NCBI GenBank assembly: GCA_027002405.1
Contig: JALWZT010000212.1
Coordinates: 1 to 54,482, forward strand
Direction of reading: 5' to 3'
Origin: Anaerolineae bacterium
Lineage (GTDB): Bacteria; Chloroflexota; Anaerolineae; J102
DNA: 54,482 nucleotides
This document shows, piece by piece, positions 1,991 through 46,118 of the stretch (its first letter is position 1; each line of letters starts with the position of its first letter). The translations under genes were made by a program, and so were the position numbers. The notes below the pieces were generated by a model, which ran no database searches, was not told the DNA's origin, and saw only the letters and a list, made by a program, of their open reading frames with translations.

Positions 1991-3400
1991 ATGTCCACCC
2001 GATGCATTCTTTTCAGCTTGAGCATTCTGATTATCGCCCTGGTATTGATTTTTGCCCTGGGAGGCGAGACGGACGTCGCCCGAGCTTATCCTCCACCACC
2101 CGCGGCCACCCCGGCCGACGCATCGCCAGCCTTCGCCAACTGGCTGCCCCTCACTTTGCTGCCGCAGTGGGCGTATTCAGGCCAACAAATCCCGTTCTGG
2201 CACCCCTACTCCCGCGCTCGCGAAGATGCCATGATGCGTATGGCGAATGAGTTCAACACGTCCAACGCCTGGCAGGTATCCATCGAACCTCAGTTTCAGG
2301 GCTCCTACGGAGAGATTTACCAAAAAATGTTGGCCGCTATTGCTTCGGGAGGATTGCCCGGCCTGGTGGTGGCCTATCAAAACCAGGCGGCCGCGTACCA
2401 GCTCTCCAACGCCCTGGTGGATATCAACACGTACGTCAACGATCCGGAGTGGGGCCTGAGCCAGGAGGCGTTGGACGATTACTTCCCCGCCATCCTGCAG
2501 GCGGATATCAGCCAGCAATTCGGGGGCATGAGGATGGGATTCCCCATGGGCCGCTCCATCGAAGTGCTGTATTACAATGCCGACTGGTTGCAAGAAATGG
2601 GCTACGACGGCCCGCCCACCACCTGGGATCAACTTCGCGAAATGGCCTGCAAGGCGGTGCAACAGTCCTTCTCGGGCGGGCCTGCGGGCGAACCTTCTCT
2701 CGGTTATGAGATTTCTACGGACGCTTCCCGTTTTGCGTCCATGGTTTTCAGCCGTGGCGGCGATCTCATCAATGCCGACATGAACGCCTACACTCTGAAC
2801 ACATCCCAGAGCCGCGAGGCCATGACTTTCATGCAGAAGCTCTATCAGGATGGCTGTGCAGGCATGATCACGGAAAGGTATGGGGACCAGATTGACTTTG
2901 GTCAAGGGAAGTTGCTCTTCACCATCGGCTCTTCGTCCGGCCTTCCCTATTATAAAACGGCTGTGGCTGTGGGTGCAGACTTCCATTGGTCTGTAGCGGC
3001 GTTGCCCCACACCACGCCCGATCCCGTGGTGAACATCTACGGCGCCAGCGTCAGCATGCCCAAGACCACGACCGAGGAACAATTGGCCGCCTGGACCTTC
3101 CTCAAATGGTTTACCCAACCGGAGCAGCAGGCTGCCTGGGCCAAAGCGACCAACTACTTTCCAGTGCGCAAATCCGCGGCTGATGAGTTGGGCGACTACT
3201 TTGCCGAAAATCCTGCCTATGCAACAGCCTTCGCACTTCTCCCCTACGGCAAGAGCGAGCCCCCCGTGGCCTGCTATGATCGGGTGCGGGCGATGATTTC
3301 CGCCACCTATGAAAGCATTCTGGGAGGAGCGGATGTCGAAAGCGCCCTGGCCCTGCTCGAAACGGACGCCAACGCTACGCTTGCGGATTGTCGGCAGTAA
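1991..3400 (+). CDS. ABC transporter extracellular solute-binding protein (family 1, sugar-type)
   Basis: Starting at ATG 1991 gives the signal/anchor MSTRCILFSLSILIIALVLIFALGG. The body has family-1 SBP character (FPMGRSIEVLYYNADWL, LFTIGSSSGLPYY). No permease or ATPase genes are adjacent. Confidence 0.8.
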   Translation: MSTRCILFSLSILIIALVLIFALGGETDVARAYPPPPAATPADASPAFANWLPLTLLPQWAYSGQQIPFWHPYSRAREDAMMRMANEFNTSNAWQVSIEPQFQGSYGEIYQKMLAAIASGGLPGLVVAYQNQAAAYQLSNALVDINTYVNDPEWGLSQEALDDYFPAILQADISQQFGGMRMGFPMGRSIEVLYYNADWLQEMGYDGPPTTWDQLREMACKAVQQSFSGGPAGEPSLGYEISTDASRFASMVFSRGGDLINADMNAYTLNTSQSREAMTFMQKLYQDGCAGMITERYGDQIDFGQGKLLFTIGSSSGLPYYKTAVAVGADFHWSVAALPHTTPDPVVNIYGASVSMPKTTTEEQLAAWTFLKWFTQPEQQAAWAKATNYFPVRKSAADELGDYFAENPAYATAFALLPYGKSEPPVACYDRVRAMISATYESILGGADVESALALLETDANATLADCRQ

Positions 3401-8212: not shown

Positions 8213-8228
8213 GTCGCTCCTATTCAGG

Positions 8229-8373
8229 GATGCACTGCAAAAAGGTTTTTCAACACGGAGACACGGAGGACACAGAGAAAAATAAGAGGGTTCGCGGAGA
8301 AAATCCTCTCCAAACCCTATCTTTTTCCTTCTCCGTGCTCTCTGTGTCTCCGTGGTTAAGTTTTTTTCAGGAC
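8229..8373. repeat. G-type long-hairpin element, copy G1 (probable bidirectional terminator)
   Basis: tgcactgcaaaaaggtttttcaacacggagacacggaggacacagagaa ... ttctccgtgctctctgtgtctccgtggttaagtttttttcagg. The arms are ACACGGAG-type tandem units, with an A-run on the left and a T-run on the right. It sits between convergent genes. A near-identical inverted copy is at 38689-38836. Confidence 0.85.
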
Positions 8374-8375
8374 AT

Positions 8376-9212
8376 TCATTCAGGCATGGCAAAGACACGT
8401 TCGGGGTGCCCAGGTAGGGAAAGCTCGGGCGCGTCGTATTCCTTGAGCGCGCCACTTTCCAGGTAAACACTGACCTTCCCCAACAAGACATTCAAATAGC
8501 GCACCACCCCTGGCCCGTCGGGCGTCAGCACCTTTTGCCCGACCTTGGGCAGATGTTTACGCGCGGCCAGGTACATGTCGTTTTCATAGGCCAGGCTGCA
8601 CATCAGCCGACCACACACGCCCGAGATATCGGCCGAGCTCAGAGGGATATTCTGATTTTTGGCCATCCGAATCGAGACGGAATGAAACTCTCGTAAAAAC
8701 GTTCTGCAACACAACCGCCGTCCGCAACGCCCGTAATCCCCCACGATCCTCGCCTGATCCCGGACGCCGATCTGACGCATCTCGATGCGGGTGCTGAAAT
8801 GCCGGGCCAAATCCCGCACCAGGGCTCGGAAATCCACCCGTTTCTCTGCCACGAATTCCACAGTCAAGCGCTCTCCATTGTAGCTGTACGAACAGCGTAC
8901 CACGCGCATATTGAGGCCATGCTCATTGGCTTTTTGCTGACATACAGGCATGGCCGCTTGGGCTTGCTTTTCCCAGTAGACCTTCTGGTCCAAATCGTAC
9001 TTGCTAGCCCGGCGCAAGATTCTCTTCAGCGGGCCTTCCAGCTCATCTTCGGCCAATTCCCTGGCGGGCACCACCACCTGGGCCAATTCCTTGCCGCGAG
9101 CCGTCTCGACCAGAACCCATTCCCCGGGCAACAAATCCGTGTAAGGGCCTGGATCGAAATCATAAAGTTTTGTAACAGGCTGAAATTGAACACTGACAGC
9201 TTGGGGCATCAC
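8376..9212 (-). CDS. ricT: PSP1-domain protein (RicT/YaaT-like)
   Basis: 278 aa with the Cys cluster YGRCGRRLCCRTFLREF. It lies immediately downstream of holB, as in the Bacillus holB-yaaT arrangement. Confidence 0.85.
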   Translation of the reverse strand: MMPQAVSVQFQPVTKLYDFDPGPYTDLLPGEWVLVETARGKELAQVVVPARELAEDELEGPLKRILRRASKYDLDQKVYWEKQAQAAMPVCQQKANEHGLNMRVVRCSYSYNGERLTVEFVAEKRVDFRALVRDLARHFSTRIEMRQIGVRDQARIVGDYGRCGRRLCCRTFLREFHSVSIRMAKNQNIPLSSADISGVCGRLMCSLAYENDMYLAARKHLPKVGQKVLTPDGPGVVRYLNVLLGKVSVYLESGALKEYDAPELSLPGHPERVFAMPE

Positions 9213-13686: not shown

Positions 13687-14883
13687 TTAGTTCAACTCGA
13701 TCCTGGTGACCTTTAATTGCCCGCGGCGGGTTTTGCGGCTGGGCGGCGCGTAGGCTTCCAGGGGGTGATCGTAGATTTCGATGATGTTATAGAGGGTGTC
13801 CCGTTCCACGGGCACTTTGCCCGCGGCTTTGATCAGGCGGAGAAGATCGAATTTATCCAGATATTCTTCGGTGGTGGCTCCGGCATCATGATAGATTTTC
13901 TCCTCCACCACGGTGCCGTCGATATCGTCTGCGCCGAAATGGAGGGAAAGCTGGGCAATCGGCGGGGTGAGCATGACCCAATAGGCCTTGATGTGCGGGA
14001 AGTTATCCAGTAACAGCCGACTAACCGCCATGGTTTTTAGGGTATCGTGGGCGCTGGTCCAGTCGAGCTGGCGGCCCAGGTTGTTGTTTTCAGGGTGATA
14101 GCGCAGGGGGATGAAGGTCTGGAACCCGCCCGTCTCATCCTGAAGCTCCCGCAATCGCAGCAAATGGTCCACGCGATGTTCGTACTGTTCGATGTGCCCG
14201 TAGAGCATGGTGGCGTTGGTGCGCAGGCCCAGCCGATGCGCGGTGCGATGGACCGCCAGCCAGGTTTCGGCGTCGGCCTTTTCGGGGCAGATGCGGCGAC
14301 GGATGTCAGGGTGGAAGATCTCGGCGCCGCCGCCGGGCATGGACCCCAGGCCCGCGTCTATCAGCCTGCGTAAGATGGTCTCATGGTCCAGGCCCGTCAT
14401 CTGGCTGAAGAAATCGATCTCCACCGCGGTAAAGGCTTTGAGATGGATGTGAGGGTATTCCCGCTTTAATGCCCGCAGCACCTCTTCGTAGTATTCAAAC
14501 CCCAGTTGGGGATGGAGTCCGCCCACGATGTGAAATTCGGTGACGCGAGGATGCACATCCCCGCGGATGCGGTCGAGAATCTGTTCGGGCGTCCAGGTGT
14601 AGGCGCCGGGGGCGTCATCGCTATGCCGGGCAAAGGAACAGAAGTTGCAGTGGAACGCACAGACGTTGGTGGGGTTGATGTGGCGGTTCTGATTGAAATA
14701 AACGTACTTGCCGCCGTTGATCCGTCGGTTGACCAGATCGGCCAATTGGCCGATGGTGAGCAGATCATAGCTTTGGAACAGGCGCATGCCATCGTCGAAA
14801 TCCAGGCGTTCGCCCGCGACGGTCTTTTCGACGATATCGTCCAGTTCGTGGGTGTGGGAGAGGGAAGTGAGGGTATCGAGCAT
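13687..14883 (-). CDS. mqnE: radical-SAM menaquinone (futalosine pathway) enzyme, MqnE/MqnC family, most like aminofutalosine synthase
   Basis: 398 aa with the radical-SAM CxxxCxxC motif in YFNQNRHINPTNVCAFHCNFCSFAR, plus VTEFHIVGGLHP and KAFTAVEI. The choice of MqnE over MqnC is from recall. Confidence 0.75.
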   Translation of the reverse strand: MLDTLTSLSHTHELDDIVEKTVAGERLDFDDGMRLFQSYDLLTIGQLADLVNRRINGGKYVYFNQNRHINPTNVCAFHCNFCSFARHSDDAPGAYTWTPEQILDRIRGDVHPRVTEFHIVGGLHPQLGFEYYEEVLRALKREYPHIHLKAFTAVEIDFFSQMTGLDHETILRRLIDAGLGSMPGGGAEIFHPDIRRRICPEKADAETWLAVHRTAHRLGLRTNATMLYGHIEQYEHRVDHLLRLRELQDETGGFQTFIPLRYHPENNNLGRQLDWTSAHDTLKTMAVSRLLLDNFPHIKAYWVMLTPPIAQLSLHFGADDIDGTVVEEKIYHDAGATTEEYLDKFDLLRLIKAAGKVPVERDTLYNIIEIYDHPLEAYAPPSRKTRRGQLKVTRIELN

Positions 14884-15301
14884 GAGGGAAGGGGTATTGG
14901 ATATTGGATACTGCTATGTAAATAGGATTCGGATCAGGATTAGGATTGAGGATCGCCAGGTCCACGTTGAGCGAGGCACCAACGGGCGTGATGCGTGAAA
15001 TGTAAAACGTGAGAGCCTTACGCATCACGCATTACGCATCACGTGCTCGGCTTCCCGCGCCAACGTGGCCGCGAGATGTTTTCATCCGTATCGGCGAGCT
15101 GCCGTTCGGGGTGACTGCTTTGTAGATAGAGTAATCAGTGATCAGTTATCAGTAATCAGTAGGAATCTGCGTTGCATCTGCGTTACATCTGCGCAGATCA
15201 GCGTTCTATTTTCATCGTTAGAGGGTGAGCTATAGTTCAGGGCGACTGGATACTGGATATTGGATACCAAATATCGAATACCCAATCCCCAATATCGCAT
15301 T
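14884..15301. repeat. modular intergenic repeat locus R1 (archetype; modules F, terminus, A, B/C, linker, D, E, F)
   Basis: F GGTATTGGATATTGGATAC 14893-14910. Terminus ctgctatgtaaatag 14911-14925. A hexamers AGGATT/CGGATC 14924-14951. B/C palindrome 14952-15078. Linker ttttcatccgtatcggcgagc...gactgctttgtagatag 15079-15129. D heptamers NATCAGT x4 15133-15160. E ATCTGCG 11-mers 15163-15206. F palindrome 15246-15297. Confidence 0.9.
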
Positions 15302-16642
15302 TTACCAGAAAGCTGGCCAAACCAGGAGAACGAGAACACTTAATCCCACACTGGCGGAAAGCGCTAGCACAGCAAGAACGCGGGGTGCAGTCCGAAGCTC
15401 ACGCGTGATGGGAAGCGCATCGAATCCGCCCGCCAAGCCCATACCAAACCACACACCGATGGCCGCGATGCTGGGCCACAACAGGCGGGCTTGGTCCGTG
15501 CCCAGGGCCAGCCGGGTGTAGTTGATAATGCCCGCCAGAGTGAGCAAAGGTGCACCTGCCAACAGGAGCAACAAGAAAACCTGGCAAGATCCCTCGCGCC
15601 ACCACCCCCGCAGGAGGTGAATAACGCCCATCAGCACGGCCAATGAGAAAACGCCCGCCAGCGCATAAGCCCAATGAGGGAGAAATATCTGGCCGATGGC
15701 GCCATAGCGTCCCCAGAAGTACGTGTACAGCCCTTTGGCCAACCATAGCAGCACTCCCAAGTCTATCGGGCCTTCCCGCACGTCTATGGTCTGGCGCACC
15801 AAGGCCCAGCCCAAAGGATCGCCATACAGTTGCCAGTTGCGCACCAGCCAGGGCGAAGCCACCAGCAGGCCCAAGCCCCAGGCCAGTGCCCCATGCCCTA
15901 CTACCTCCAACCAGGCCCGAGCCTGATCGCGGCGAGGCCAGAGATATGCGGCCAGGGGAAGCGCCAACAACGGCCACAGAGAAAAGGTCCCCACCTTGGA
16001 AAGCGCGCCCAGGCCGAAAATGACGCCCAGAGCCAAAGTGTATCGCCAGGACAGCGATTGCTGAATCATCCTCACCATGATCAAGATAGCCAGGGCCCCA
16101 AACGCGCCTGCTGCATTGTCATTGTTTATGGCCCCGCTGATGTACAAAAAGCCAGGCAGGCCCGCCAGAAACGCGGCAGCCATCAAGCCCACATCCTGAC
16201 GCTGCGGAAAGGATTCTTGCCCTATGCGCCAGGTGGCCCACAGGGTGATGCCACCCAACACCACCGAAAGAAAGCGCACCAGGTGGAAAGCCAGGGGACC
16301 TTCTCGCCAGGGGAAGGCCTCGGCATCGCCGTGGATGAAGAAATTGGCCGGGCCATCGGTGCGAATGGGGAACACATCGGGGTTGGGCTGCAGAAAGAGC
16401 CCCATGCCTGTCCATCCCCCCACCAAGGCTGCCATCCCATGATAGAGCGGAGGGTGCTTGCCCTGGGTGATCTCCGGCCCCTGGGGCAAATGCCGATGCC
16501 GGGCCAGGTAGCGGGCGTAGGCGTAGTGATCAGCCTCATCGGGCGCCTCCCCCAGGGGCACGATCACGGACACAGCCGTGGCCAGCACCAGGTAGACTGC
16601 CAGGATGATGAGAAAAAAACGGGGCTGCTTTGAAAATAGCAT
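15302..16642 (-). CDS. GT-C-fold membrane glycosyltransferase (ArnT/PMT_2-like)
   Basis: 446 aa, polytopic. The first periplasmic loop is PLGEAPDEADHYAYARYL, the acidic motif typical of ArnT/PMT-type GT-C enzymes. Its ATG and first 6 codons (MLFSKQ) lie inside the repeat terminus 16625-16642. Confidence 0.65.
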   Translation of the reverse strand: MLFSKQPRFFLIILAVYLVLATAVSVIVPLGEAPDEADHYAYARYLARHRHLPQGPEITQGKHPPLYHGMAALVGGWTGMGLFLQPNPDVFPIRTDGPANFFIHGDAEAFPWREGPLAFHLVRFLSVVLGGITLWATWRIGQESFPQRQDVGLMAAAFLAGLPGFLYISGAINNDNAAGAFGALAILIMVRMIQQSLSWRYTLALGVIFGLGALSKVGTFSLWPLLALPLAAYLWPRRDQARAWLEVVGHGALAWGLGLLVASPWLVRNWQLYGDPLGWALVRQTIDVREGPIDLGVLLWLAKGLYTYFWGRYGAIGQIFLPHWAYALAGVFSLAVLMGVIHLLRGWWREGSCQVFLLLLLAGAPLLTLAGIINYTRLALGTDQARLLWPSIAAIGVWFGMGLAGGFDALPITRELRTAPRVLAVLALSASVGLSVLVLLVWPAFW

Positions 16643-16971
16643 GATCGTCGGTTGCGGAAGGATCGCCAGGCCTACGTTGAGCGAGACGACAACGGGCGTG
16701 ATGCGTGAAAACGTGAAACGTGAGAACCTTACGCATCACGCATTACGCATTACGTGCTTGGCTTCCCGCGCCAACTTGGCCGCGAGATGTTTTCCTCGGT
16801 ATCGACGCGGGCGAGCCCGCCGTTGGACTGCTTTGAAAATAGAGGACGCAGATGAACGCTGATAGAGGCAGATTCACGCAGACAAAAAATCAAAATAAAA
16901 ATCATCTGCGCAAATCAGCGTTGCGAAGCATCTGTGCAAATCTGCGTTCCCTTTTCATCCGTATCGGTGAG
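16625..16971. repeat. modular intergenic repeat locus R2 (terminus, B/C, linker, E-type inverted array, linker)
   Basis: ctgctttgaaaatag 16625-16639. ggatcgccaggcctacgttgagcgag...cgtgaaaacgtgaaacgtgag/cttacgcatcacgcattacgcat...ccaacttggccgcgagatg. Linker 16790-16842. gcagatgaacgctgat ... atcagcgttgcgaagcatctg arrays run to 16950. The final linker runs into the stop of the next gene. Confidence 0.9.
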
Positions 16972-19830
16972 CTATCGCTCAGGGTGACTGATCACTGATG
17001 ATGTTTTTGGCAACAGGGGCAATGGAGTCAATTCCAAAGCGTCATCGAAGACAGGAAGCTCGCTGGTCACATGGAGACGTGCGCCTGTGTGGGGATCATA
17101 CATGCCCACGCGTAAGTCGTATCGACCTGGGGGAAGGTTGGAAGGAATAGAGAGGATGTGGACATCGCGAATGTATTCCTGGGGGAACCAGATGTCGGTG
17201 GGGAGTTGTCCTTGTGCGGGGATGCCGTCGTGCTGCGCGACAATGCGCCCCTCTGCATCGAGGAGATGAACAAAAACTTTGTACGAGATGTCGTCAGGGG
17301 CTTGCGCTCGCCAGAGGAGCTCGAGGGTGAGGGGCTGTCCGGGAACGCCCTTTTCGGGATGAAGCGCATACCCGGCCAACTCGGCAATGCTTCCTATCTG
17401 AGCTGAAACTGGTATGAAATCCGCAGGTGGGGACCAGAGATGTGGACGATCTTGGACGGTCAATGTTCCTATAGGGAATGGAAGAGGCGCTGGATGGTCC
17501 TCGAAAATCAAGCGAAGATCGACCAGGTAGCGGTGATCTCCCAGGGTAATGGGGGCCCGGACGTTATGCTGGGTATGAATGATAGCACCAGGCTTGAGTA
17601 ACTCAAAGGTGGAGGGGGTCATGAGCGGCTGATCTGGAGGCCGGGTGTGGCGAATGGCTTTCCCTCGGAATCGTATTCGTATGGAGGGGACACGGTGAAG
17701 GGGGCGTCGCACCTGCCAGTAGGTATCTACCCTTATGGGGTCACCCGGCCGAACTGGGCCCGGAGAAACGGCCCAGGCTTTTAGGGCCAGGGGGCCCATG
17801 CGAGGGGCAATAGGCGGAACAAAGCTCGGGGCAAGGTAGGCCCGGCGGAAGGTTGAGGTGGTCTCGACATGCACCTGGCCTAAGGGGATGGGATCGTATC
17901 TGGGAAAGCGATACAATTGGTCATCGTCCGAAAAATAGAACATGAGCAGCTCGGCTTGATAGTCGCCGGGCAGGGCTCCCAGCGGGAGCTGCAAGGGGAT
18001 AGCGGTCAAGCCTTCGGTGCCCTGAGGGATGACATCGCCAGGGTACCATTGAGAGGCCAGTAATGCATGAAATTCAATGGGGGGCTGATGCGGTTCTGGA
18101 GATGTGAGTCGGATGCCCAGGAAGGTGCGCTTGGGCAAGGCATCTTGGGCGTGCCAACAGACCGAAAGGGAAAGGGTTTCATAGGGGGGCAGGGTTCGGG
18201 GGAGTTGTCCAATCCCCAAGGCAATGGGGCCGTAAGACGCGAGGGGCAAGTCTAAGGTCTGGGAGCAGGAAAGTGTTTGTCCTTTGGGAAGCACACGCAC
18301 AAGATGTCCCCAGGGAATGAAGGCGTAATCCTCCGGCCACGAGGACATCTGGGATGGAGGAAGAGGCGCTGCTACATAAAGGGGAAGGCCGTGCTCCAGC
18401 CAGGGATCGATAACAGCTTTTGGGGCGGGAGGGAATAATCCCCACAGGTCCGTGCGCAGGTTTTGGATATGTTGCAGGTACCACAGGGGGGTGAAGTCAC
18501 TCCAGTTTCCCAATAACCCCGCCTGTTCTTCGATGGGCTGGGCCAGGATGGCTTCCCAGCCAGCGCGGATGTCGATTCGGCGACTGAAGTCCCGCTGGTC
18601 CCAGTTGGAGGTGAGTAGGATCAGGAACACGCTGAGCGCAAACACGCCTTGCAGAGCCCGTACGGTTCTTGTTTGCCTCGCTCCCGATGCAAGGCTGCTT
18701 GGGAGCAGGGGTGCGAAGGCAGCAAAGAAGGCGATAATGCCAAAGACGGGCATCAGATAGGCATCGTTTTTTCCCTGCCGGATGTAAGCGACCATGAGCG
18801 TGAGGAATAAGGCAAACCCAAAAATCAGAAGTGTAAACAAGGGCTCTCTGCGGAGAAGATAGATAAATCCTATGCCCGCCATGACCAGCAACCACCAGGG
18901 GGCATCCTGCTGGAAGAAGGGGATCAGGCCCGGCAAATTATGGACGGCCTGAATCCACCCACCCCCAAGGAATTGCCAGATATAGCCCTGCAACCCGGCG
19001 ATGTAATGGAAAATCAAAGCCCCATCACCATGGGGCACATACCAGACGTGAACCAGCCCCTTGTAGACGGCTGCGGAACGAGCAATCCCAGGCAATAGCG
19101 GCCAGGATGAAAAGGTTTTCCAGCGCCATGGCACGTAGAGATAGAACACCAGCGGAAGTCCCAAGGGGATCAGCCACCAAAGGGCGCGGCGGAGGCGTTG
19201 GTGGCCATGCGCCCCCGTGCCCGAAACCATCAGAATGAACCAAAAGGGGGCCATCAACGCGGCCGTGGGATGCAGCGTGAGGCTGATGCCCAACATGCCG
19301 CCAGCCAGGGCCAGGCGCCATCGCTTTTGGGACCATGAGGCGAAGCGTCGGGCCTCCCAGGCTGCCCACCAGGCTCCGATCATGAGGGCCAGGTTGAGCG
19401 TGTAGCGTTCGGCCACGATGCTGAATTGCCAAAAGGTGGGCATCAGGGCCAAGATCATGCCCGCAAGAAAGGCAGAGGTATGGTTGCGGGTCATGCGCCA
19501 AACCAGCGCGGCCAGGATCCCCGCGGCCAGAGCCCCAGCCAGGGCCGAGAGCAGGTTCATCTCCCATGCCGGCTCCCCCAGGGGGAGTTTTTGCCATAGC
19601 CAGCCCAACAGCATGTACGCAGGGAAGCCGTTGGGATGGGGGAGGCCCAGCAAAGAGGGGAGATATTGAAATTCAGCGAAATCCGAGACGAAAACGTCCG
19701 GGGCCAGGGTGCGCCAATAAATCAAAAAGGTGGAGCATGTTACGATCCCAGGGGTGATCCAGCCCTGGCGCCGCAATTTTTCGAAGGTCAAGGGATCGTT
19801 CATTGGGGGATGATGCTCTGCTGGACTCAA
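16972..19830 (-). CDS. DUF2723/TMEM260-like GT-C membrane glycosyltransferase with a large C-terminal repeat-domain region
   Basis: 952 aa. The N-terminus TLAPDVFVSDFAEFQYLPSLLGLPHPNGFPAYMLLGWLW is DUF2723-like. The C-terminal part carries about 3 copies of a ~100-aa module ending YKVFVHLLDAEGRIVAQHDGIPAQGQLPTDIWFPQEYIRD...LPPGRYDLRVGMYD. Confidence 0.7.
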   Translation of the reverse strand: MSPAEHHPPMNDPLTFEKLRRQGWITPGIVTCSTFLIYWRTLAPDVFVSDFAEFQYLPSLLGLPHPNGFPAYMLLGWLWQKLPLGEPAWEMNLLSALAGALAAGILAALVWRMTRNHTSAFLAGMILALMPTFWQFSIVAERYTLNLALMIGAWWAAWEARRFASWSQKRWRLALAGGMLGISLTLHPTAALMAPFWFILMVSGTGAHGHQRLRRALWWLIPLGLPLVFYLYVPWRWKTFSSWPLLPGIARSAAVYKGLVHVWYVPHGDGALIFHYIAGLQGYIWQFLGGGWIQAVHNLPGLIPFFQQDAPWWLLVMAGIGFIYLLRREPLFTLLIFGFALFLTLMVAYIRQGKNDAYLMPVFGIIAFFAAFAPLLPSSLASGARQTRTVRALQGVFALSVFLILLTSNWDQRDFSRRIDIRAGWEAILAQPIEEQAGLLGNWSDFTPLWYLQHIQNLRTDLWGLFPPAPKAVIDPWLEHGLPLYVAAPLPPSQMSSWPEDYAFIPWGHLVRVLPKGQTLSCSQTLDLPLASYGPIALGIGQLPRTLPPYETLSLSVCWHAQDALPKRTFLGIRLTSPEPHQPPIEFHALLASQWYPGDVIPQGTEGLTAIPLQLPLGALPGDYQAELLMFYFSDDDQLYRFPRYDPIPLGQVHVETTSTFRRAYLAPSFVPPIAPRMGPLALKAWAVSPGPVRPGDPIRVDTYWQVRRPLHRVPSIRIRFRGKAIRHTRPPDQPLMTPSTFELLKPGAIIHTQHNVRAPITLGDHRYLVDLRLIFEDHPAPLPFPIGTLTVQDRPHLWSPPADFIPVSAQIGSIAELAGYALHPEKGVPGQPLTLELLWRAQAPDDISYKVFVHLLDAEGRIVAQHDGIPAQGQLPTDIWFPQEYIRDVHILSIPSNLPPGRYDLRVGMYDPHTGARLHVTSELPVFDDALELTPLPLLPKTSSVISHPER

Positions 19831-19857: not shown

Positions 19858-19945
19858 GTCATCAGTAATCAGTCATCCGTCGGAATCAGCGTTGCGAAGC
19901 ATCTGTGTAAATCTGCGTTCCCATTTTTGTTCGCATTGGTAAGCC
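19858..19945. repeat. modular intergenic repeat locus R3 (short: D remnant, E, linker)
   Basis: gtcatcagtaatcagtcatccgtcggaatcagcgttgcgaagcatctgtgtaaatctgcgttcccatttttgttcgcattggtaagccgtt. It matches the E-plus-linker part of R2 (16915-16965). Confidence 0.8.
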
Positions 19946-19946
19946 G

Positions 19947-22206: not shown

Positions 22207-22619
22207 CTGCTTTGAAAATAGCATGATCGTCGGTTGCGGAAGGATCGCCAGGCCGACGTTGGGCGAGTCGGCAAAGGTTCGTATTGCGTATTCCGTATTC
22301 CGTCCAGTCGTTACGCAATACGCAATACGGAATACGAGTCACGCCGCCCTGGCCGCGAGGCATTTTCGTCGGTATCGGCGCGGGCGAGCCAGCCGTTGGA
22401 CTGCTATGAAAATAGGATTCGGAGCAGGATTAGGATCAGGATTAGGATCGTCAGGCCCACGTTGGGCGAGGCTGCAACGGGCGTGATGCGTGAAACGTGA
22501 AACGTGAGAATCTTACGCATTACGGCATCACGCATCACGTTTTACGGTCCGTCAGCCTGGCTGCGAGGCGTTTTCATTCGTATCGGTAAACCGCCGCTTG
22601 TGTGGCCTGCTTCGCAACC
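22207..22619. repeat. modular intergenic repeat locus R4 (two scaffold units with different cores)
   Basis: Terminus 22207-22221. Scaffold ggatcgccaggccgacgttgggcgag 22242-22267, with core cgtattgcgtattccgtattccg / cgcaatacgcaatacggaatacg (22280-22336). Linker 22363-22415. Hexamers 22414-22449. The second scaffold carries the cgtgaaacgtgaaacgtgag-type core (22450-22570). Confidence 0.9.
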
Positions 22620-26753: not shown

Positions 26754-27035
26754 CTGCTTTGTAAATAGAGTAATCAGTGATCAGTTATCAGTAATCAGTA
26801 GAGCCTCGCGACGTCATTCCGAGGGAGCGAAGCGACCGAGGCATGTCCTGAGCGCAGCCGAAGGAAATCTAGCGAAGCGCAAGAACCACCGCATGGCGCT
26901 CGCTTCGTTCGCTAGATGCTTCGCTCCCTCCGGTCGCTCAGCATGACGAATATCTGCGAAAATCTGCACTGCGAAGCATCTGCGAAAATCTGCGTCCTCA
27001 TTTTCATCGGTATCAGCGAGCCATGGATCGTGGCG
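26754..27035. repeat. modular intergenic repeat locus R5 (terminus, D, third core type, E, linker)
   Basis: ctgctttgtaaatag 26754-26768. NATCAGT x4 26772-26799. The core palindrome is gtcattccgagggagcgaagcgaccgagg ... tctagcgaagcg/cgcttcgttcgctaga ... gcttcgctccctccggtcgctcagcatgac (26811-26947). ATCTGCG arrays 26952-26996. Linker ttttcatcggtatcagcgagc follows. Confidence 0.85.
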
Positions 27036-27040
27036 CCCGC

Positions 27041-27481
27041 TCAGATTTCGCGCTCATCCTCTTCATCCATAAGAAAGAAGATGCCCGCAAAGAAAATGAT
27101 GAGAAAGGCGGTGAGGGCCATGAAAGGAATGGTGATGAACCCTGCCAGGTTCACCCAGGTGGTGGTACAGGGGATGCCTGTGTCGCAGACCGCGCTGTGG
27201 GAAAAGAGAGGGGTTTTCTGGAGCAGATAATGGTAACTGGATACCAGTGTTCCCAGGATGGTGAAGGGCAAGACATAATGGAAAACACCCTGGTCTCTAC
27301 GTAGCAGCCCGATAAGCAGGATGAGCGCGAGGGGATACATGAGTATCCGTTGGTACCAGCACAGGCTACACGGGATAAAATGGAGTCCTTCGCTTAAATA
27401 AAGACTGCCCAGGGTGGCTGCCCAGGCTGCTGCCAGGGCGATCAGGATGGCGATGGTGCGGTGTGTGGAGAAACGGTGAAT
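27041..27481 (-). CDS. DsbB/BdbC-family disulfide bond formation protein; probable non-canonical ATT (or ATC) start
   Basis: The ATG ORF (27041..27340) starts at ...MYPLALILL. The in-frame upstream sequence reads IHRFSTHRTIAILIALAAAWAATLGSLYLSEGLHFIPCSLCWYQRIL, with no ATG, GTG or TTG back to the in-frame TGA. That stretch carries TM1 and the CxxC, and aligns with the Bacillus BdbC N-terminus as I recall it. AGGAGG (27488-27493) lies 6 nt upstream of ATT (27479-27481). Confidence 0.6.
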   Translation of the reverse strand: MHRFSTHRTIAILIALAAAWAATLGSLYLSEGLHFIPCSLCWYQRILMYPLALILLIGLLRRDQGVFHYVLPFTILGTLVSSYHYLLQKTPLFSHSAVCDTGIPCTTTWVNLAGFITIPFMALTAFLIIFFAGIFFLMDEEDEREI

Positions 27482-27491
27482 GATGGGCCTC

Positions 27492-27715
27492 CTGCTTTGT
27501 AAATAGGATTCGGATCAGGATTAGGATCGGGATTAGGATTCGGATTGAAGATCGTCAGGACTACGTTGGGCTGGAGAGCAACGGGCGTGATGCGTGAAAC
27601 GTGAAACGTGAGAACCTTACGCATCACGCATTACGCATCCCGGGCTCGGCTTCCCGCGCCAGCCTGGCCGCGAGGTGTTTTCCTCTGTATCGACGAACAG
27701 GCGTTCGTGGCAAAA
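27492..27715. repeat. modular intergenic repeat locus R6 (terminus, A, B/C, linker)
   Basis: ctgctttgtaaatag 27492-27506. Hexamers 27505-27547. Then gatcgtcaggactacgttgggctggagagcaacgggcgtgatgcgtgaaacgtgaaacgtgagaaccttacgcatcacgcattacgcat...ccagcctggccgcgaggtgttttcctctgtatcgacg. Confidence 0.9.
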
Positions 27716-27717
27716 GT

Positions 27718-29695: not shown

Positions 29696-29866
29696 GGGTA
29701 GGATTTAGGGCATGATGCATTTTCGACTCCAGGAAACTTGACAAATGCTGCCAGGTCTTTCGTAGCAAGATAGTCGATATTGGGTATTTGATATTGGGTA
29801 TTCAAATCATCCCAGAACAGGGAAAAATATCCAATATCCAGTATCCATGCCTCTAATTTGTCAAGC
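29681..29866. repeat. modular intergenic repeat locus R7 (A hexamers plus an F-type TGGATAT palindrome bounded by a perfect 10-nt IR)
   Basis: aggatcaggattaggggtaggatttaggg 29681-29710. IR cttgacaaat (29737-29746) pairs with atttgtcaag (29856-29865). It encloses gatattgggtatttgatattgggtattc ... atatccaatatccagtatcc. Confidence 0.8.
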
Positions 29867-31686: not shown

Positions 31687-32355
31687 ATGTCATCTGTTCC
31701 CGTGCTCATTTTAGCCTCTGCTTCCCCTCGTCGCCGCCAACTTTTGGTTGCGCTGGGATTGCCCTTTCGCGTCGATGCGGTGGATATCGATGAGGGACAG
31801 CTTCCCGGCGAATCGCCCCTGGCCTATGTCTTACGTCTGGCTCGGGCCAAGGCGCAGGCCGCGGCTCGGAAACATCCCCATGCCATCATTCTGGCTGCGG
31901 ACACCATTGTGGTGCATCGCGGGGAGGTTTTGGGGAAGCCTTCCAGCTCTGAAGAGGCTCGGACCATGTTACGCCGTCTGCGCGGGGCGTCGCATCATGT
32001 GATGACCGCGGTGGCCGTGGCCCATGAGGGGGATTTGCACACAGGTTTGGAGCTTTCTCGCGTGGTGATGCGGTCGTACTCCGACAAAGAAATCAACGCG
32101 TATGTGGATTCTGGTGAGCCGATGGACAAGGCCGGGGCGTATGCCATTCAGGATCCTCGCTTTCGGCCAGTGGCCCGATGGGAGGGCTGTTTTGCCAGCA
32201 TCATGGGGCTCCCTTTGGGAGTTGCTGCGGATTTGCTCCGGCGAGTCGGCTTGGAGCCCGAGCCTTATTGGTCGCAGCGCTGTGCGGTCATCACCGGGCA
32301 TAACTGTCGGTGTCATCTCGGGCGTAGAGAGGGGCCGTTGGTTGACGGGGAATAA
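31687..32355 (+). CDS. maf: Maf-like nucleoside triphosphate pyrophosphatase
   Basis: 222 aa: VLILASASPRRRQLLVALGLPFRV ... ILAADTIV ... KAGAYAIQ. It has a C-terminal ~30-aa extension. Confidence 0.9.
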   Translation: MSSVPVLILASASPRRRQLLVALGLPFRVDAVDIDEGQLPGESPLAYVLRLARAKAQAAARKHPHAIILAADTIVVHRGEVLGKPSSSEEARTMLRRLRGASHHVMTAVAVAHEGDLHTGLELSRVVMRSYSDKEINAYVDSGEPMDKAGAYAIQDPRFRPVARWEGCFASIMGLPLGVAADLLRRVGLEPEPYWSQRCAVITGHNCRCHLGRREGPLVDGE

Positions 32356-32356
32356 G

Positions 32357-32525
32357 CTGCTATGTAAATAGGATTCGGATCAGGATTAGGATTGAGGTCG
32401 TCAGGCCGACGTTGAGCGAGGCGACAACGGGCGTGATGCGTGAAACATGAAACGTGAGAACCTCACGCATCACGCATTACGCATTACGTTTCGCGGCTCA
32501 CCAACCTGGCTGCGAGGCGTTGTTA
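32357..32525. repeat. modular intergenic repeat locus R8 (terminus, A, B/C)
   Basis: ctgctatgtaaatag 32357-32371 starts 1 nt after the maf stop. Hexamers 32370-32398. Then gtcgtcaggccgacgttgagcgaggcgacaacgggcgtgatgcgtgaaacatgaaacgtgagaacctcacgcatcacgcattacgcattacg...ccaacctggctgcgaggcg. Confidence 0.9.
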
Positions 32526-32572
32526 TTGGGGGTGAAAATTTGAAAAAAATTCATCTTTTTTCCAAAAAGGGG

Positions 32573-32601
32573 TTGTCAAATGGTGTTTTTTCTGCTACAA
32601 T
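32573..32601 (+). promoter_or_regulatory. candidate strong sigma-70-type promoter (extended -10)
   Basis: TTGTCA (32573-32578), a 17-nt spacer, then TGC-TACAAT (TACAAT 32596-32601). An A/T-rich UP-like tract lies upstream (gaaaatttgaaaaaaattcatcttttttccaaaaagg). Confidence 0.45.
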
Positions 32602-33606
32602 ATGTTAAGTTTCCGTTCCGGTGTCTCAAACTATGTTTCATGTGAAACATGGTTGAGTCGCTGGGGGGAGACAAATCTCTGTTTCCACGAGGTGCCATTG
32701 ACATCATCACCGCATCCTGTCAAAATTATCAGCTATGAAGGGAGTACATACAAAACCGATTTTTGGGAAGGACAAGGGCGAGAGTTCGAGGATCGTACGG
32801 AGCGTCTGGCTCTGCGTCAGTTGTTACCTGCCTCGGGCCACACCTTGATCGAGGTTGGAGCAGGTTTCGGGCGCCTGGCTGATCTTTATCAAGGTTATCA
32901 GCGGGTTATTTTGGTGGATTATTCCACCACATTGTTATCCGAGGCCCGGGAACATCTGGGCCATGATGCTCGTTATATGTATGTGGCCGCAAACGTGTAT
33001 CATTTGCCCTTTGTGGATCATGTGGCGGATGTTGTGGTGATGATTCGGGTGGCTCACCATTTGGCTGCTGTGGATTTGGCCTTGGCGGAGATTTACCGGG
33101 TGATGCAGGGCGGGCGCCCATTCATTATGGAGTTCGCCAACAAGCGTCATCTCAAAGCCATTGTTCGGTATGCCCTGGGTAAGCAGCCGTGGAGTCCCTT
33201 TGACCCCTTCCCTTATGAGTTTGTCCCCCTGAATTTTGATTTTCATCCCTCGTGGATGCGTCAGCAATTGATGGCGGCTGGATTCCGTGTGGAACGCGAG
33301 TTGGCCATCTCGCATTTTCGTCTGCCTGCTCTCAAGCGTCGTATTCCTCCCCAATGGCTGGCCCGTTTGGACAACGCTTTGGCTGGCCCTGGGGCGTGGT
33401 TGAAATTAAGCCCCAGTGTGTTGACCAAAAATGTGGCTCTGAAACCCCCGACAAGCCCGGCTGGTTTTCTGCGTTGCCCTGCTTGCGGCTCTCAAAGATT
33501 GGTCGCTGACGGCTCTCAGCACACATGTCAGGAATGCGGGCGGTCGTGGCCCATCCGTGATGGGATTTTTGATTTCCGCTATCCTCGACCGGAGGATGCC
33601 CCTTGA
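32602..33606 (+). CDS. class I SAM-dependent methyltransferase with a C-terminal Trm112-like zinc ribbon; true start uncertain
   Basis: SAM motif LIEVGAGFGRLADLY...VILVDYS. C-terminus RCPACGSQRLVADGSQHTCQECGRSWPIRDGIFDF. ATG 32602 abuts the candidate -10 box, so the real start may be an in-frame TTG or GTG at 32653, 32692 or 32698. Confidence 0.75.
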   Translation: MLSFRSGVSNYVSCETWLSRWGETNLCFHEVPLTSSPHPVKIISYEGSTYKTDFWEGQGREFEDRTERLALRQLLPASGHTLIEVGAGFGRLADLYQGYQRVILVDYSTTLLSEAREHLGHDARYMYVAANVYHLPFVDHVADVVVMIRVAHHLAAVDLALAEIYRVMQGGRPFIMEFANKRHLKAIVRYALGKQPWSPFDPFPYEFVPLNFDFHPSWMRQQLMAAGFRVERELAISHFRLPALKRRIPPQWLARLDNALAGPGAWLKLSPSVLTKNVALKPPTSPAGFLRCPACGSQRLVADGSQHTCQECGRSWPIRDGIFDFRYPRPEDAP

Positions 33607-33608
33607 GA

Positions 33609-33812
33609 AGTTTCACGTGAAACGGGCGCCGCGCACGGCAGCTCGCCGATGCCGAGGAAAAGGGAACGCAGATTTGCGCAGGTGCGACGCAGATTTCCAC
33701 TGATTACTGATCGCTGATCACTGATTACTCGTGCTTGCGCCAAACCTCGACCTGACAATCCTCAATCCTAATCCTAATCCTAATCCTAATCCTGATCCTA
33801 TTTACGGAAAAG
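33609..33812. repeat. modular intergenic repeat locus R9 (inverted orientation: linker, E, D, A, terminus)
   Basis: gtttcacgtgaaac palindrome. gctcgccgatgccgaggaaaagg. gaacgcagatttgcgcaggtgcgacgcagatttcc. ACTGATN x4 33699-33729. CCTAAT-type hexamers 33757-33797. ctatttacggaaaag 33798-33812. Confidence 0.85.
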
Positions 33813-35816: not shown

Positions 35817-36020
35817 GGAGTAGGAGCAGGATTAGGATTGGGATTGGGTGGGGGATGGACGGACGCGTCATCGCTGCCAAGGGCTGGCTCCACGGCAAAA
35901 AGGTTTTTCAACACGGAGACACGGAGGGCACAGAGAAGTTCATAGGTGGCAAGTTGCAGGTGACTGGTGAAGAGAACGCAGATTCCCACTGATTACTGAT
36001 CACTGATAACTGATTACTTT
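35817..36020. repeat. modular intergenic repeat locus R10 (A, half G element, E remnant, D inverted)
   Basis: ggagtaggagcaggattaggattgggattggg. aaaaggtttttcaacacggagacacggagggcacagagaag is the left arm of the G element only. gaacgcagattccc. ACTGATN x4 35988-36017. Confidence 0.8.
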
Positions 36021-38660: not shown

Positions 38661-38688
38661 TGGAACACCTCAATGAGAAAGAATGGAT

Positions 38689-38836
38689 GTCCTGAAAAAA
38701 CCTTAACCACGGAGACACAGAGAGCACGGAGAAGGTAAAAGATTAAGGTTTGGAGAGAATTTTCTCCGTGAACCCCCTTATTTTTTCTCTGTGTCCTCCG
38801 TGTCTCCGTGTTGAAAAACCTTTTTGCAGTGCATCC
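38689..38836. repeat. G-type long-hairpin element, copy G2 (inverted relative to G1)
   Basis: The reverse complement reads ggatgcactgcaaaaaggtttttcaacacggagacacggaggacacagagaaaaaataagg...ccgtggttaaggttttttcaggac. By eye this is almost identical to 8229-8373. It lies just downstream of the DUF59 gene on the minus strand. Confidence 0.85.
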
Positions 38837-38873
38837 AAGAATAGTTGCTGATTTTTACGAGAGCCAAGTAATC

Positions 38874-45870: not shown

Positions 45871-46107
45871 TCTGCTTTCAAAACAGTCTTCACGAACGGC
45901 AGTTCGCCGATACGAATGAAAACGTCTCGCGGCCAGGCTGGCGCGGGAAGCCGAGTTCGTGATGCGTAATACGTAATGCGTAATGAGCTCACGTTTTACG
46001 TTTCACGCATCACGCCCGTTGGTGCCTCGCCCAACGTGGGCCTGGCGATCTTAATCCTAATCCTAATCCTAATCCTAATCCTGATCCGAATCCTATTTTC
46101 AAAACAG
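45871..46107. repeat. modular intergenic repeat locus R11 (inverted orientation: linker, B/C, A, terminus)
   Basis: ctgctttcaaaacag...gttcgccgatacgaatgaaaac...ctcgcggccaggctggcgcgggaagccgag...gatgcgtaatacgtaatgcgtaatgagctcacgttttacgtttcacgcatcacgcccgttg...cccaacgtgggcctggcgatc. CCTAAT hexamers 46051-46093. ctattttcaaaacag 46093-46107. Confidence 0.9.
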
Positions 46108-46118
46108 GAGTCCCTTCC

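Follow-up and report, generated by a model that had tools for sequence, protein, structure and literature searches.

Is a short sequence that recurs beside start codons a device for starting genes, or does it stand there for another reason? This question is raised by contig JALWZT010000212.1 of an Anaerolineae bacterium (Chloroflexota), of which the whole analyzed stretch of 54,482 nucleotides (nt) is called the window here. The initial annotation had drawn attention to a 15-nt word whose outward-facing copies lie mostly next to start codons and which at one site seemed to be a gene start itself, and had proposed that the elements ending in this word act as portable translation-initiation or 5' untranslated region (UTR) cassettes or insert preferentially at translation start regions. 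What was observed is real, other genomes show it too, and the word hugs gene boundaries of both kinds, i.e., the starts of genes on its own strand and the 3' ends of genes on the opposite strand. What exceeds chance is the tightness of the word against whichever gene boundary is present, not a preference for starts.

Architecture of the Repeat Units

With up to two mismatches allowed, the word CTATTTWCAWAGCAG has 11 matches in the window as compared to 0.13 expected from shuffled sequences, of which ten, located between 14.9 and 45.9 kb, are minus-strand matches and the eleventh, at 46093, is a plus-strand match. They are paired at a spacing of about 200 nt (14911/15115, 16625/16828, 22207/22401, and 45872/46093), and the identities of the genes next to them are confirmed by Pfam. 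Repeat analysis, inspection, an alignment of 29 units, and more than 90 distinct heads in about 480 kb of loci identify the word as the 3' tail of modular intergenic repeat units of 120-230 nt. Read in the direction of the gene beside it, such a unit consists of a 5' hairpin, a head with the near-invariant motif CCGATACCGATGAAAA, a variable body, a tract of hexamers or heptamers, and an AT-rich tail ending in CAG. The position of the hairpin is kept while its stems vary (CGAGC/GCTCG, GCGGG/CCCGC, CGCGC/GCGCG, or CGAAC/GTTCG). Type I bodies are long imperfect palindromes capped by complementary heptamer repeats (CGTAATG/CGTGATG ... CACGTTT), for which the first unit of array C has other heptamers at its apex with the hairpin retained; alternative bodies are rich in GCAGAT. 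The microsatellite tract before the tail is (AATCCT)n, (TNACTGA)n, or another one. Units of different types are stacked head-to-tail with one word between neighbors, which is why the word is found at both ends of a unit, and they fill whole spacers. Where an array begins, the sequence 5' of its first head mostly has CAG at its end and often resembles the word, and the two ends of unit G carry an identical 11-mer, TTTCAAAACAG. There is no relationship between head (hairpin plus CCGATACCGATGAAAA) and tail (CTATTTTCAWAGCAG), whichever orientation is compared. Copies of units are 67-94% identical to each other, with a mean of 79%. The units of the window and their junctions, including those with Shine-Dalgarno (SD) sequences, are as follows.

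14884..15301, minus: array A, tail word 14911-14925, 27 nt from the mqnE start codon (ATG 14883)
14911-15129, minus: type I unit of array A, head 15079-15094, word 15115-15129
15130-15245, minus: type II unit of array A, (TNACTGA)3 heptamers at about 15135-15162
16625..16642, minus: tail word (16625-16639) plus CAT at the start of the GT-C/PMT_2 gene (15302..16642), giving its ATG and codons 2-6 (MLFSKQ)
16625..16990, minus: array B, running into the stop codon (16972-16974) of the TMEM260-like gene
16625-16842, minus: type I unit of array B, head motif 16790-16805, upstream word 16828-16842
16843-16990, minus: GCAGAT-type unit of array B, head 16952-16967
19866..19946, minus: remnant of a unit of the GCAGAT/heptamer type, with the PTPS_related stop on one side and the TMEM260-like start on the other, no intact tail word
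22207..22617, minus: array C, two type I units, tail 22207-22221, 7 nt from the PTPS_related start (ATG 22199), with a tail-borne out-of-frame ATG at 22224
22207-22415, minus: first unit of array C, heptamer hairpin substituted
22401-22617, minus: second unit of array C, type I
26754..27039, minus: unit D, type II, head 27001-27016, GCAGAT body, (TNACTGA)3, tail 26754-26768, 4 nt from the start (ATG 26749) of an SdrD_B-like gene without SD
27479..27716, minus: unit E, type I, head 27678-27693, (AATCCT)n, tail 27492-27506, whose AG joins a native GAGG to give AGGAGG, followed by the DsbB start ATC 27484-27482 or ATT 27481-27479
32357..32530, minus: unit F, type I without head, tail 32357-32371, stop-facing class, next to maf (31687..32355, plus)
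33640..33812, plus: unit H, head 33646-33661, GCAGAT repeats, TNACTGA-like heptamers, (AATCCT)n
33798-33812, plus: degenerate tail of unit H (CTATTTACGGAAAAG), 372 nt upstream of rpoD
45872..46118, plus: unit G, type I, in a divergent spacer, 5' flank word 45872-45886, head 45907-45922, (AATCCT)5, tail 46093-46107, CAG/GAG SD 8 nt before the cyclase ATG 46119

Both strands of the units are predicted to fold (z about -2), the antisense strand being more stable by about 11 kcal/mol, and folding therefore is not decisive for the choice of a functional strand. The last 45 nt, i.e., tract and tail, are predicted to be less paired than the rest (unpaired probability 0.56 versus 0.36). There is no Rfam match at gathering level in the window, a permissive search of 14850-17020 gave chance-level matches only (E of 0.4 or more), and a tRNA scan of the window returned nothing relevant to the units. 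Scans for sigma-70 promoters and intrinsic terminators detected no motif that recurs among units. A promoter in the antisense TTGAAA of the word was discarded, as the single promoter-like match (9/12) is at chance level, and so was a mini-open reading frame starting from the ATG-AAA of the head, where ATG reads ACG, AGG, or AAG in several heads.

Some units are accompanied by further repeated sequences. A nested palindromic element of about 150 nt (GTCATTCCGAGGGAGCGAAGC ... GCTTCGCTCCCTCCGGTCGCTCAGCATGAC) is situated at 26801-26950 between the GCAGAT body and the heptamers of unit D. Tracts of TGGATAT/TGGATAC heptamers (TGGATAY and complements) flank array A as an inverted pair (14884-14910 and 15245-15300) and recur at 29785-29850 as another module of the microsatellite type. 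Unit F has an A/T-rich stretch in place of its head, and within this stretch a good sigma-70-like match (32573-32601, TTGTCA-17-TACAAT, its second hexamer preceded by TG) stops a single base short of the ATG of a methyltransferase gene at 32602, which would imply a leaderless mRNA or a mis-set start for this gene.

Junctions between Tails and Genes

All coordinates and distances in the initial annotation proved correct. Within the window, six of the eight outward-facing copies of the word lie at -18 to +27 nt from a start codon (0-27 nt in that annotation), and the exceptions that it named are the copy at 32357, at 1 nt from the maf stop, and the degenerate copy of unit H. That the tail stands recurrently in translation-initiation regions holds for other assemblies as well. 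For a broader tally, 121 tails de-duplicated by junction sequence were taken from the window and from the loci L001, L003, L004-L030, and L048-L070. Another head follows in 41 cases, 36 tails face the start of a gene on the same strand, 27 face the 3' end of a gene on the opposite strand, and 17 are unresolved with the crude codon-score open reading frame (ORF) finder employed for these loci. Start- and stop-facing tails therefore stand at 57:43 (36 and 27 of 63; binomial p=0.31), and the supposed specificity for start codons is not borne out. Although a semi-manual tally of co-directional contexts in the first data set gave about 22 sense versus 10 antisense cases, the larger automated set shows no strong bias. 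Nor does a role as dedicated start cassettes agree with the 43% of classifiable terminal tails that abut the stop of an opposite-strand gene and often supply it. Distances are short on both sides of this division. In 23 of the 36 start-facing copies the start lies 1-11 nt from the tail, whereas in 15 of the 27 stop-facing copies the stop codon is inside the word, which reads CTG-CTA-TGA or CTG-TTC-CGA-AAA-TAG on the other strand, and in a further 8 it is 0-6 nt away. The tail side is tighter than the head side, and heads overlap the stop codons of upstream genes.

A second regularity concerns the SD. GAG follows directly after the CAG of the tail in 14 of the 36 start-facing copies (and in unit E of the window) but in none of the 27 stop-facing and none of the 41 internal ones, and start-facing copies have no SD at any other distance from the tail. 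The resulting CAG/GAG(G)-N5-8-ATG fusions include divergent spacers (unit G of the window, L008, L020, and L025). Since GAG is present only where a start follows, the SD is part of the gene, with the tail joined exactly at its 5' edge; the possibility that GGAG is carried by the unit is ruled out by the same counts. It is also ruled out that native ribosome-binding sites (RBSs) of this lineage generally read CAGGAG, as only 7 of 124 element-free GGAG-ATG sites (about 6%) are preceded by CA. An origin of start-facing junction sequences as remnants of a next head was likewise rejected, since alignment scores equal those of shuffled controls, with the exception of GATGAAAACCGCC in L030. At this locus (about 3270-3299, minus strand) the tail (CCATTTTCGGAACAA) is followed by the gene start ATCCTT-GATGAAAACCGCC, which matches the head motif GATGAAAACGCC at 12/12 bases with one single-base insertion, and the start codon may here be derived from a truncated head. 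At other loci tails adjoin tRNA-like sequences recognized by eye, i.e., CCGTAGCTCAATTGGCAGAGCAGCCGGCTGTTAACCGGC in L027 (about 1600-1750) and GGGATTCGAACCCGTGACG in L022 (about 1065-1140).

One rival account would be crowding or chance, i.e., that in spacers of 20-100 nt any inserted unit inevitably comes to lie beside a start, the tail having no special relation to boundaries. The size of unit-free orthologous spacers (21-100 nt), the lack of a significant bias in orientation relative to genes, and the heads that abut stop codons too are all in line with it. However, the exact GGAG junction is far more frequent than the 1/64 expected by chance per site, no stop-facing or internal tail is followed by GAG, the fit to gene boundaries is much tighter for tails than for heads, and the stop is so often inside the word. 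In divergent spacers, which must also hold promoters, the tight junction persists, and crowding therefore cannot be the cause there. As a full explanation, crowding has very little probability in our view.

Another explanation would be the insertion-site specificity of a strand-specific machinery, be it single-strand transposition of the IS200/IS605 type or site-specific recombination at a CAG/G core. Integration 3' of word-like ...CAG targets would explain words at both ends, mixed arrays, and landing at A-rich-CAG/GAGG RBSs. The units have a subterminal 5' hairpin and no terminal inverted repeats, most heads that are first in an array have a word-like 5' flank ending in CAG, even right after a stop codon (L004 7281), and the identical 11-mer at both ends of unit G, the mixing of unit types with single words between them, and the unit-free DsbB site of L046, which natively reads CAGGAGG, point in the same direction. 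In contrast, so few element-free GGAG sites are preceded by CA, stop-facing junctions share no 3' sequence, no hairpin is found beside the tail, and neither a transposase nor a recombinase partner was identified in the 480 kb of loci. At unit E, CAG is missing from the 5' flank and nothing of the native spacer is left, which means that the event was not a clean insertion. We consider site specificity an improbable cause of the whole pattern.

Remodeling of Individual Genes

Comparison with orthologues shows what the tails contribute to the genes next to them. Thirty orthologues of the GT-C protein start with M-[TS]-[DE]-[KN]-R-x-F-L, whereas the protein encoded in the window starts with MLFSKQPRFFL and homology resumes at the codon after the word; the next canonical start in frame is a GTG inside the first transmembrane segment (TM1). 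The start codon and with it six codons are therefore repeat-derived, in agreement with the initial annotation, which had equated ATG and codons 2-6 (MLFSKQ) with the terminus itself; more exactly, they are the word plus CAT. This ATG seems to be a variant of the tail-b sequence, as copies in JALXCB01 read ATCATTC at this place. That the terminus supplies an ATG thus holds for one gene. For the PTPS_related gene, where the distance of the word and the out-of-frame ATG are as had been described, homology to the orthologue in L003 sets in some 8 residues behind the ATG. The distance of 27 nt for mqnE is likewise correct, and its N-terminus is the same as in the orthologue. The SdrD-like gene agrees with its orthologues in the N-terminus, but these read TGGAGG-N5-ATG, whereas in the window heptamers, tail, TCCC, and ATG follow each other without any SD, at the distance of 4 nt given before.

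The claim that the terminus also supplies the SD stands only for its terminal AG and, in a different sense, for the SdrD-like gene, in which the tail stands where orthologues have their SD. At the cyclase gene CAG/GAG is indeed followed after 8 nt by the ATG, but orthologues have TGGAG, AAGGAGG, or GCGAGG upstream, which means that GGAG is native to the gene and that the repeat gives AG alone. The same applies to DsbB, for which the overlap of the word with AGGAGG was correctly noticed: unit-free orthologues read (C/A)AGG(G)AGG-N5-ATC-AAC-CGN-TTC, the window reads CAG/GAGG-CCC-ATC-ATT-CAC-CGT-TTC, and GGAGG therefore is native with only AG derived from the repeat. No ATG, GTG, or TTG follows AGGAGG before TM1 and the CxxC motif, and the start of this gene must be the ATC at 27484 or the ATT at 27481. 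GGAGG, 3-6 nt, and a conserved ATC (I-[HN]-[RP]-F...) are found in the window (27479-27491), in L046 (about 1575-1600), and in L047 (about 1600-1625), which looks like a conserved non-canonical AUC/AUU initiation codon of this DsbB clade; a sister clade starts with MTSTQRI and has an ATG. As the putative non-ATG start is conserved in unit-free orthologues, it is not damage caused by the unit. Gene callers truncate this gene to a 99-amino-acid product from an internal ATG, without TM1 and CxxC, or extend it far upstream. At the other end of a unit, the C-terminus of the TMEM260-like protein (...PKTSSVISHPER, then the stop) reads into the unit head, unlike the orthologue. At the level of sequence, co-option is demonstrated for the GT-C start and for the RBS region of the SdrD-like gene, and units may have a quantitative effect on translation.

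Distribution and Empty Orthologous Sites

Homologues of the GT-C protein place the contig among uncultured Chloroflexota labelled Caldilineae, Caldilineales, or Anaerolineae. Scanning a genome collection with the type I core gave at least 27 loci; among the matches listed, most belong to the metagenome-assembled genome (MAG) JALXCB01 and others to DRQW01 and VGOG01. A metagenome scan with the head gave 23 loci from one JGI sample, in part from the same population as the first data set, and a scan of viral contigs with the head gave no matches. Exact word and head are also found in GCA_054024535.1 (L003) upstream of RtcB, again with CAG/GAGG-N5-ATG, and a version with heptamers plus tail exists in GCA_054037575.1 (L001). 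In JALXCB01, DRQW01, and GCA_054024535.1 the same head and the exact word occupy other sites.

The genes flanking the units are housekeeping genes whose order is kept in relatives without units. In L001 the TMEM260-like, GT-C, and mqnE genes follow each other as in the window with unit-free spacers of 36 and 49 nt as compared to 329 and 418 nt in the window. Where the window has units E and D between YbaK, DsbB, and SdrD_B-like genes, L046 and L047 have unit-free spacers of 100/72 and 24/21 nt, and cyclase orthologues of 83-91% identity (L042-L045) have no unit upstream. With short, unit-free spacers and the same gene order in relatives, the units are lineage-specific insertions at these sites. 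We infer from this comparison of sites between genomes that units are mobile and may have spread to different sites in different genomes. Empty sites in relatives whose genes have an SD of their own, together with heads that overlap upstream stops, speak once more against dedicated start cassettes.

Within the species of the window every strain-level contig carries units E, G, and D, so that no empty site was found among these contigs, and mqnE and UbiA look-ups gave no result. Since no orthologous gene is common to the window and the JALXCB01 loci, sites could not be compared directly between the two. Tract length varies among strains, as (AATCCT)n upstream of the cyclase RBS (46053-46092) has five copies in the window and L034, four in L038, L039, and L041, and three in L035. 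The only other difference among the strain contigs is that in some assemblies a head or tail segment of unit G or E is replaced with the one from another copy; gene conversion or chimeric assembly could be responsible. Every genome used is a MAG or a set of metagenome contigs, and mis-assembly of repeats can occur in these, but independent assemblies agree on units E, G, and D. One of the unit-free cyclase orthologues (91% identity, L042, about 925-962) has GGTTTTCGAGTCACCACTATTCCCGAATATGGAG-CTTCCT-ATG upstream, resembling the last 35 nt or so of tail variant d (GGCTTCGAGTT...CTATCTTCGGAACAGGAG); this leader might be either a decayed unit or a native word-like leader able to serve as a target. 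Contigs L036, L037, L040, L041, L035, and L033 end inside units, either 39-120 nt upstream of the cyclase gene or within unit E.

Comparison with Known Repeat Families

The closest precedent of the units is the TAACTGA direct heptamer repeats described from marine Beggiatoaceae, Cyanobacteria, and a few Bacteroidetes, with Chloroflexi not being mentioned (MacGregor, 2015; PMC4679880). Those repeats are mostly in forward orientation a few nucleotides upstream of the starts of unrelated genes, usually without RBS; about 87% (147/170) are oriented toward starts and a minority point to stops, they sometimes overlap the end of the upstream ORF, and the mechanism of their spread is not known (PMC4679880). 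In the window and related loci there are 21 (T-N-ACTGA)2-3 tracts, including TTACTGATAACTGATCACTGA at 26774 and 15135 of the window, of which at least 13 are forward and within 40 nt of a start, and at unit D they precede a gene lacking the SD of its orthologues. In contrast to that precedent, the tract is here an interchangeable module of a 120-230-nt unit with a hairpin head, some units carry (AATCCT)n or other tracts instead, and a 15-nt tail stands between tract and start; in many start-facing copies it is word plus GGAG that intervene. Orientation toward starts is also much weaker, 57% versus about 87%.

This resemblance is one of the reasons to keep in view the idea that the units are portable translation-initiation or 5'-UTR cassettes with a function for the host, in which the body would insulate or stabilize the mRNA, tract and tail would serve as a ribosome standby or S1/Csp-type site, and initiation would be SD-assisted or SD-independent, perhaps as part of a post-transcriptional regulon as proposed for TAACTGA repeats. 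Apart from the forward tracts close to starts, the exact fit of the tail on GGAG without SD at any other distance, the maintenance of this junction in divergent spacers, the SdrD-like gene left with heptamers, tail, and 4 nt only, and the GT-C gene apparently read from a tail-borne ATG speak for it. A tail predicted to be relatively unstructured, a word and head conserved across divergent genomes, and a tract of strain-variable length right beside the RBS are favorable too. On the other hand, 27 of 63 terminal tails face 3' ends of opposite-strand genes, 41 of 121 are internal, orthologous genes of relatives work without units, and the downstream genes are functionally unrelated. A host function of this kind seems unlikely to us, although it keeps some probability.

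Other repeat families resemble the units in part. In Streptococcus pneumoniae, BOX elements are short and non-coding, lie in many copies between genes, and have a modular structure, boxA-boxB(n)-boxC, with variable sub-repeat number; they are predicted to form stable hairpins, lie near genes, and are co-transcribed. The units share modules in fixed order, variable sub-repeats, predicted hairpins, and closeness to genes with them but no sequence relationship, and we know of neither heterogeneous head-to-tail arrays with a shared terminal word nor a fixed SD junction for BOX elements. Correia/NEMIS, ERIC, RPE, Chunjie, and Nezha are small non-autonomous repeats found in or between gene ends that leave operons intact, and repeats of the type called MITE (miniature inverted-repeat transposable element) at times contribute promoters, start or stop codons, or peptide segments in frame; the units resemble them in this remodeling of gene ends. 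Like classical MITEs, units are small, non-coding, and multi-copy, and orthologous sites are empty (L001, L046, L047, and L042-L045). However, terminal inverted repeats are a mark of classical MITEs, whereas the units are asymmetric, without terminal inverted repeats, the inverted repeat being internal in the body. Target-site duplications of classical MITEs are variable; the flanks of the units are direct repeats too, but always of the same motif (CAG or word-like), not copy-specific ones, with the identical 11-mer of unit G among them.

IS200/IS605-derived PATEs have neither terminal inverted repeats nor target-site duplications, possess subterminal hairpins at both ends and a fixed 5' target of 4-5 nt, and are strand-asymmetric. 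The 5' hairpin of the units with its compensatory stem variants, CAG 5' of most heads, and strand asymmetry resemble this, in contrast to the missing hairpin at the tail and a flank motif longer than 4-5 nt; no head-to-tail pair enclosing an ORF was seen in the 480 kb of loci, nor was a TnpA, RAYT, or TnpB partner found there. Cyanobacterial STRR sequences are long, simple, intergenic heptanucleotide arrays of filamentous bacteria with strain-variable copy number, of which tandem heptamers and variable copy number recur here, but as modules bounded by a conserved head and tail. Unlike in an integron cassette/attC array, the flanking genes are housekeeping genes in conserved order and not variable mobile ORFs. 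REP/REPIN sequences are palindromes of 20-40 nt that carry GTAG or CGTC as a tag and have a RAYT associated with them; units are much longer, have no such tag, and their head sequences do not fit. REP tags are described in PMC3733652. Searches of the literature returned no description of these units in Chloroflexi.

The window contains a separate repeat of about 165 nt (8220-8381 and 38681-38844, mutually inverted and 95-97% complementary, with a partial copy at 35885-35945), which is bounded by inverted repeats at its termini (GCACTGCAAAAAGGTTTTTCAACACGGAGACACGGAGG...) and in appearance is a conventional MITE.

Origin of the Start Association

We lean towards the explanation that the units are a non-coding, non-autonomous, modular repeat superfamily and that their association with starts is a by-product of compatible junctions, with occasional genuine co-option, which is the simplest account to fit all observations. 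Units would invade or replace short spacers, come to occupy the entire spacer, and survive only where their junctions are compatible with the flanking genes, and those in full spacers would probably be co-transcribed with the genes. Properties of the tail are suited to such a course. Its sense strand has no stop in any frame, is AU-rich, and ends in AG; being open, predicted to be weakly structured, and AG-ended, it fits onto an SD, can replace an SD, or can be read through from a tail-borne ATG. As its reverse complement carries TGA, TAA, or TAG, an opposite-strand gene lacking its own stop ends within 15 nt. The exact junctions might arise if neutral DNA were lost as far as the nearest element with a function (SD, ATG, or stop), or by insertion at word-like ...CAG targets.

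Several points weigh against this by-product explanation. Exact abutment on GGAG, also in divergent spacers, is unexplained by crowding alone, and with CA in front of so few element-free GGAG sites simple insertion 3' of a native CAG is insufficient. The tighter tail side hints at a tail-specific process or function, and word and head remain identical between genomes in which orthologous proteins are about 73-76% identical, which argues for constraint, either by a host function or by a transposition machinery. To this are added the lack of an autonomous partner in the 480 kb of loci, the lack of presence/absence polymorphism among strain contigs of the window's species, the lack of near-identical unit copies (94% identity at most), and the 17 of 121 tails that remained unclassifiable with crude gene calls.

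A bolder idea would be that of mobile ribosome-landing cassettes, in which hairpin insulator, unstructured tract, and AU-rich word replace the SD and are read by a dedicated RNA-binding factor, tract length tunes translation, and the TNACTGA module is shared, possibly horizontally, among filamentous members of four phyla (Beggiatoaceae, Cyanobacteria, Bacteroidetes, and Chloroflexota). To us it appears improbable.

If the by-product explanation is true, the units constitute an undescribed, abundant repeat superfamily of uncultured Anaerolineae/Caldilineae-like Chloroflexota that accounts for about 5% of this contig. The units mislead gene callers, as in the truncated DsbB call or in long false N-terminal extensions, and break short-read metagenome assemblies, many public contigs of this species ending inside them. 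Selfish or neutral repeats would remodel gene boundaries by donating a start codon and an N-terminus, displacing an SD, donating stops to genes on the opposite strand, and extending C-termini. The phenomenon of heptamers before starts would reach a fourth phylum, here inside a larger bounded unit, which would provide a handle on its origin and spread.

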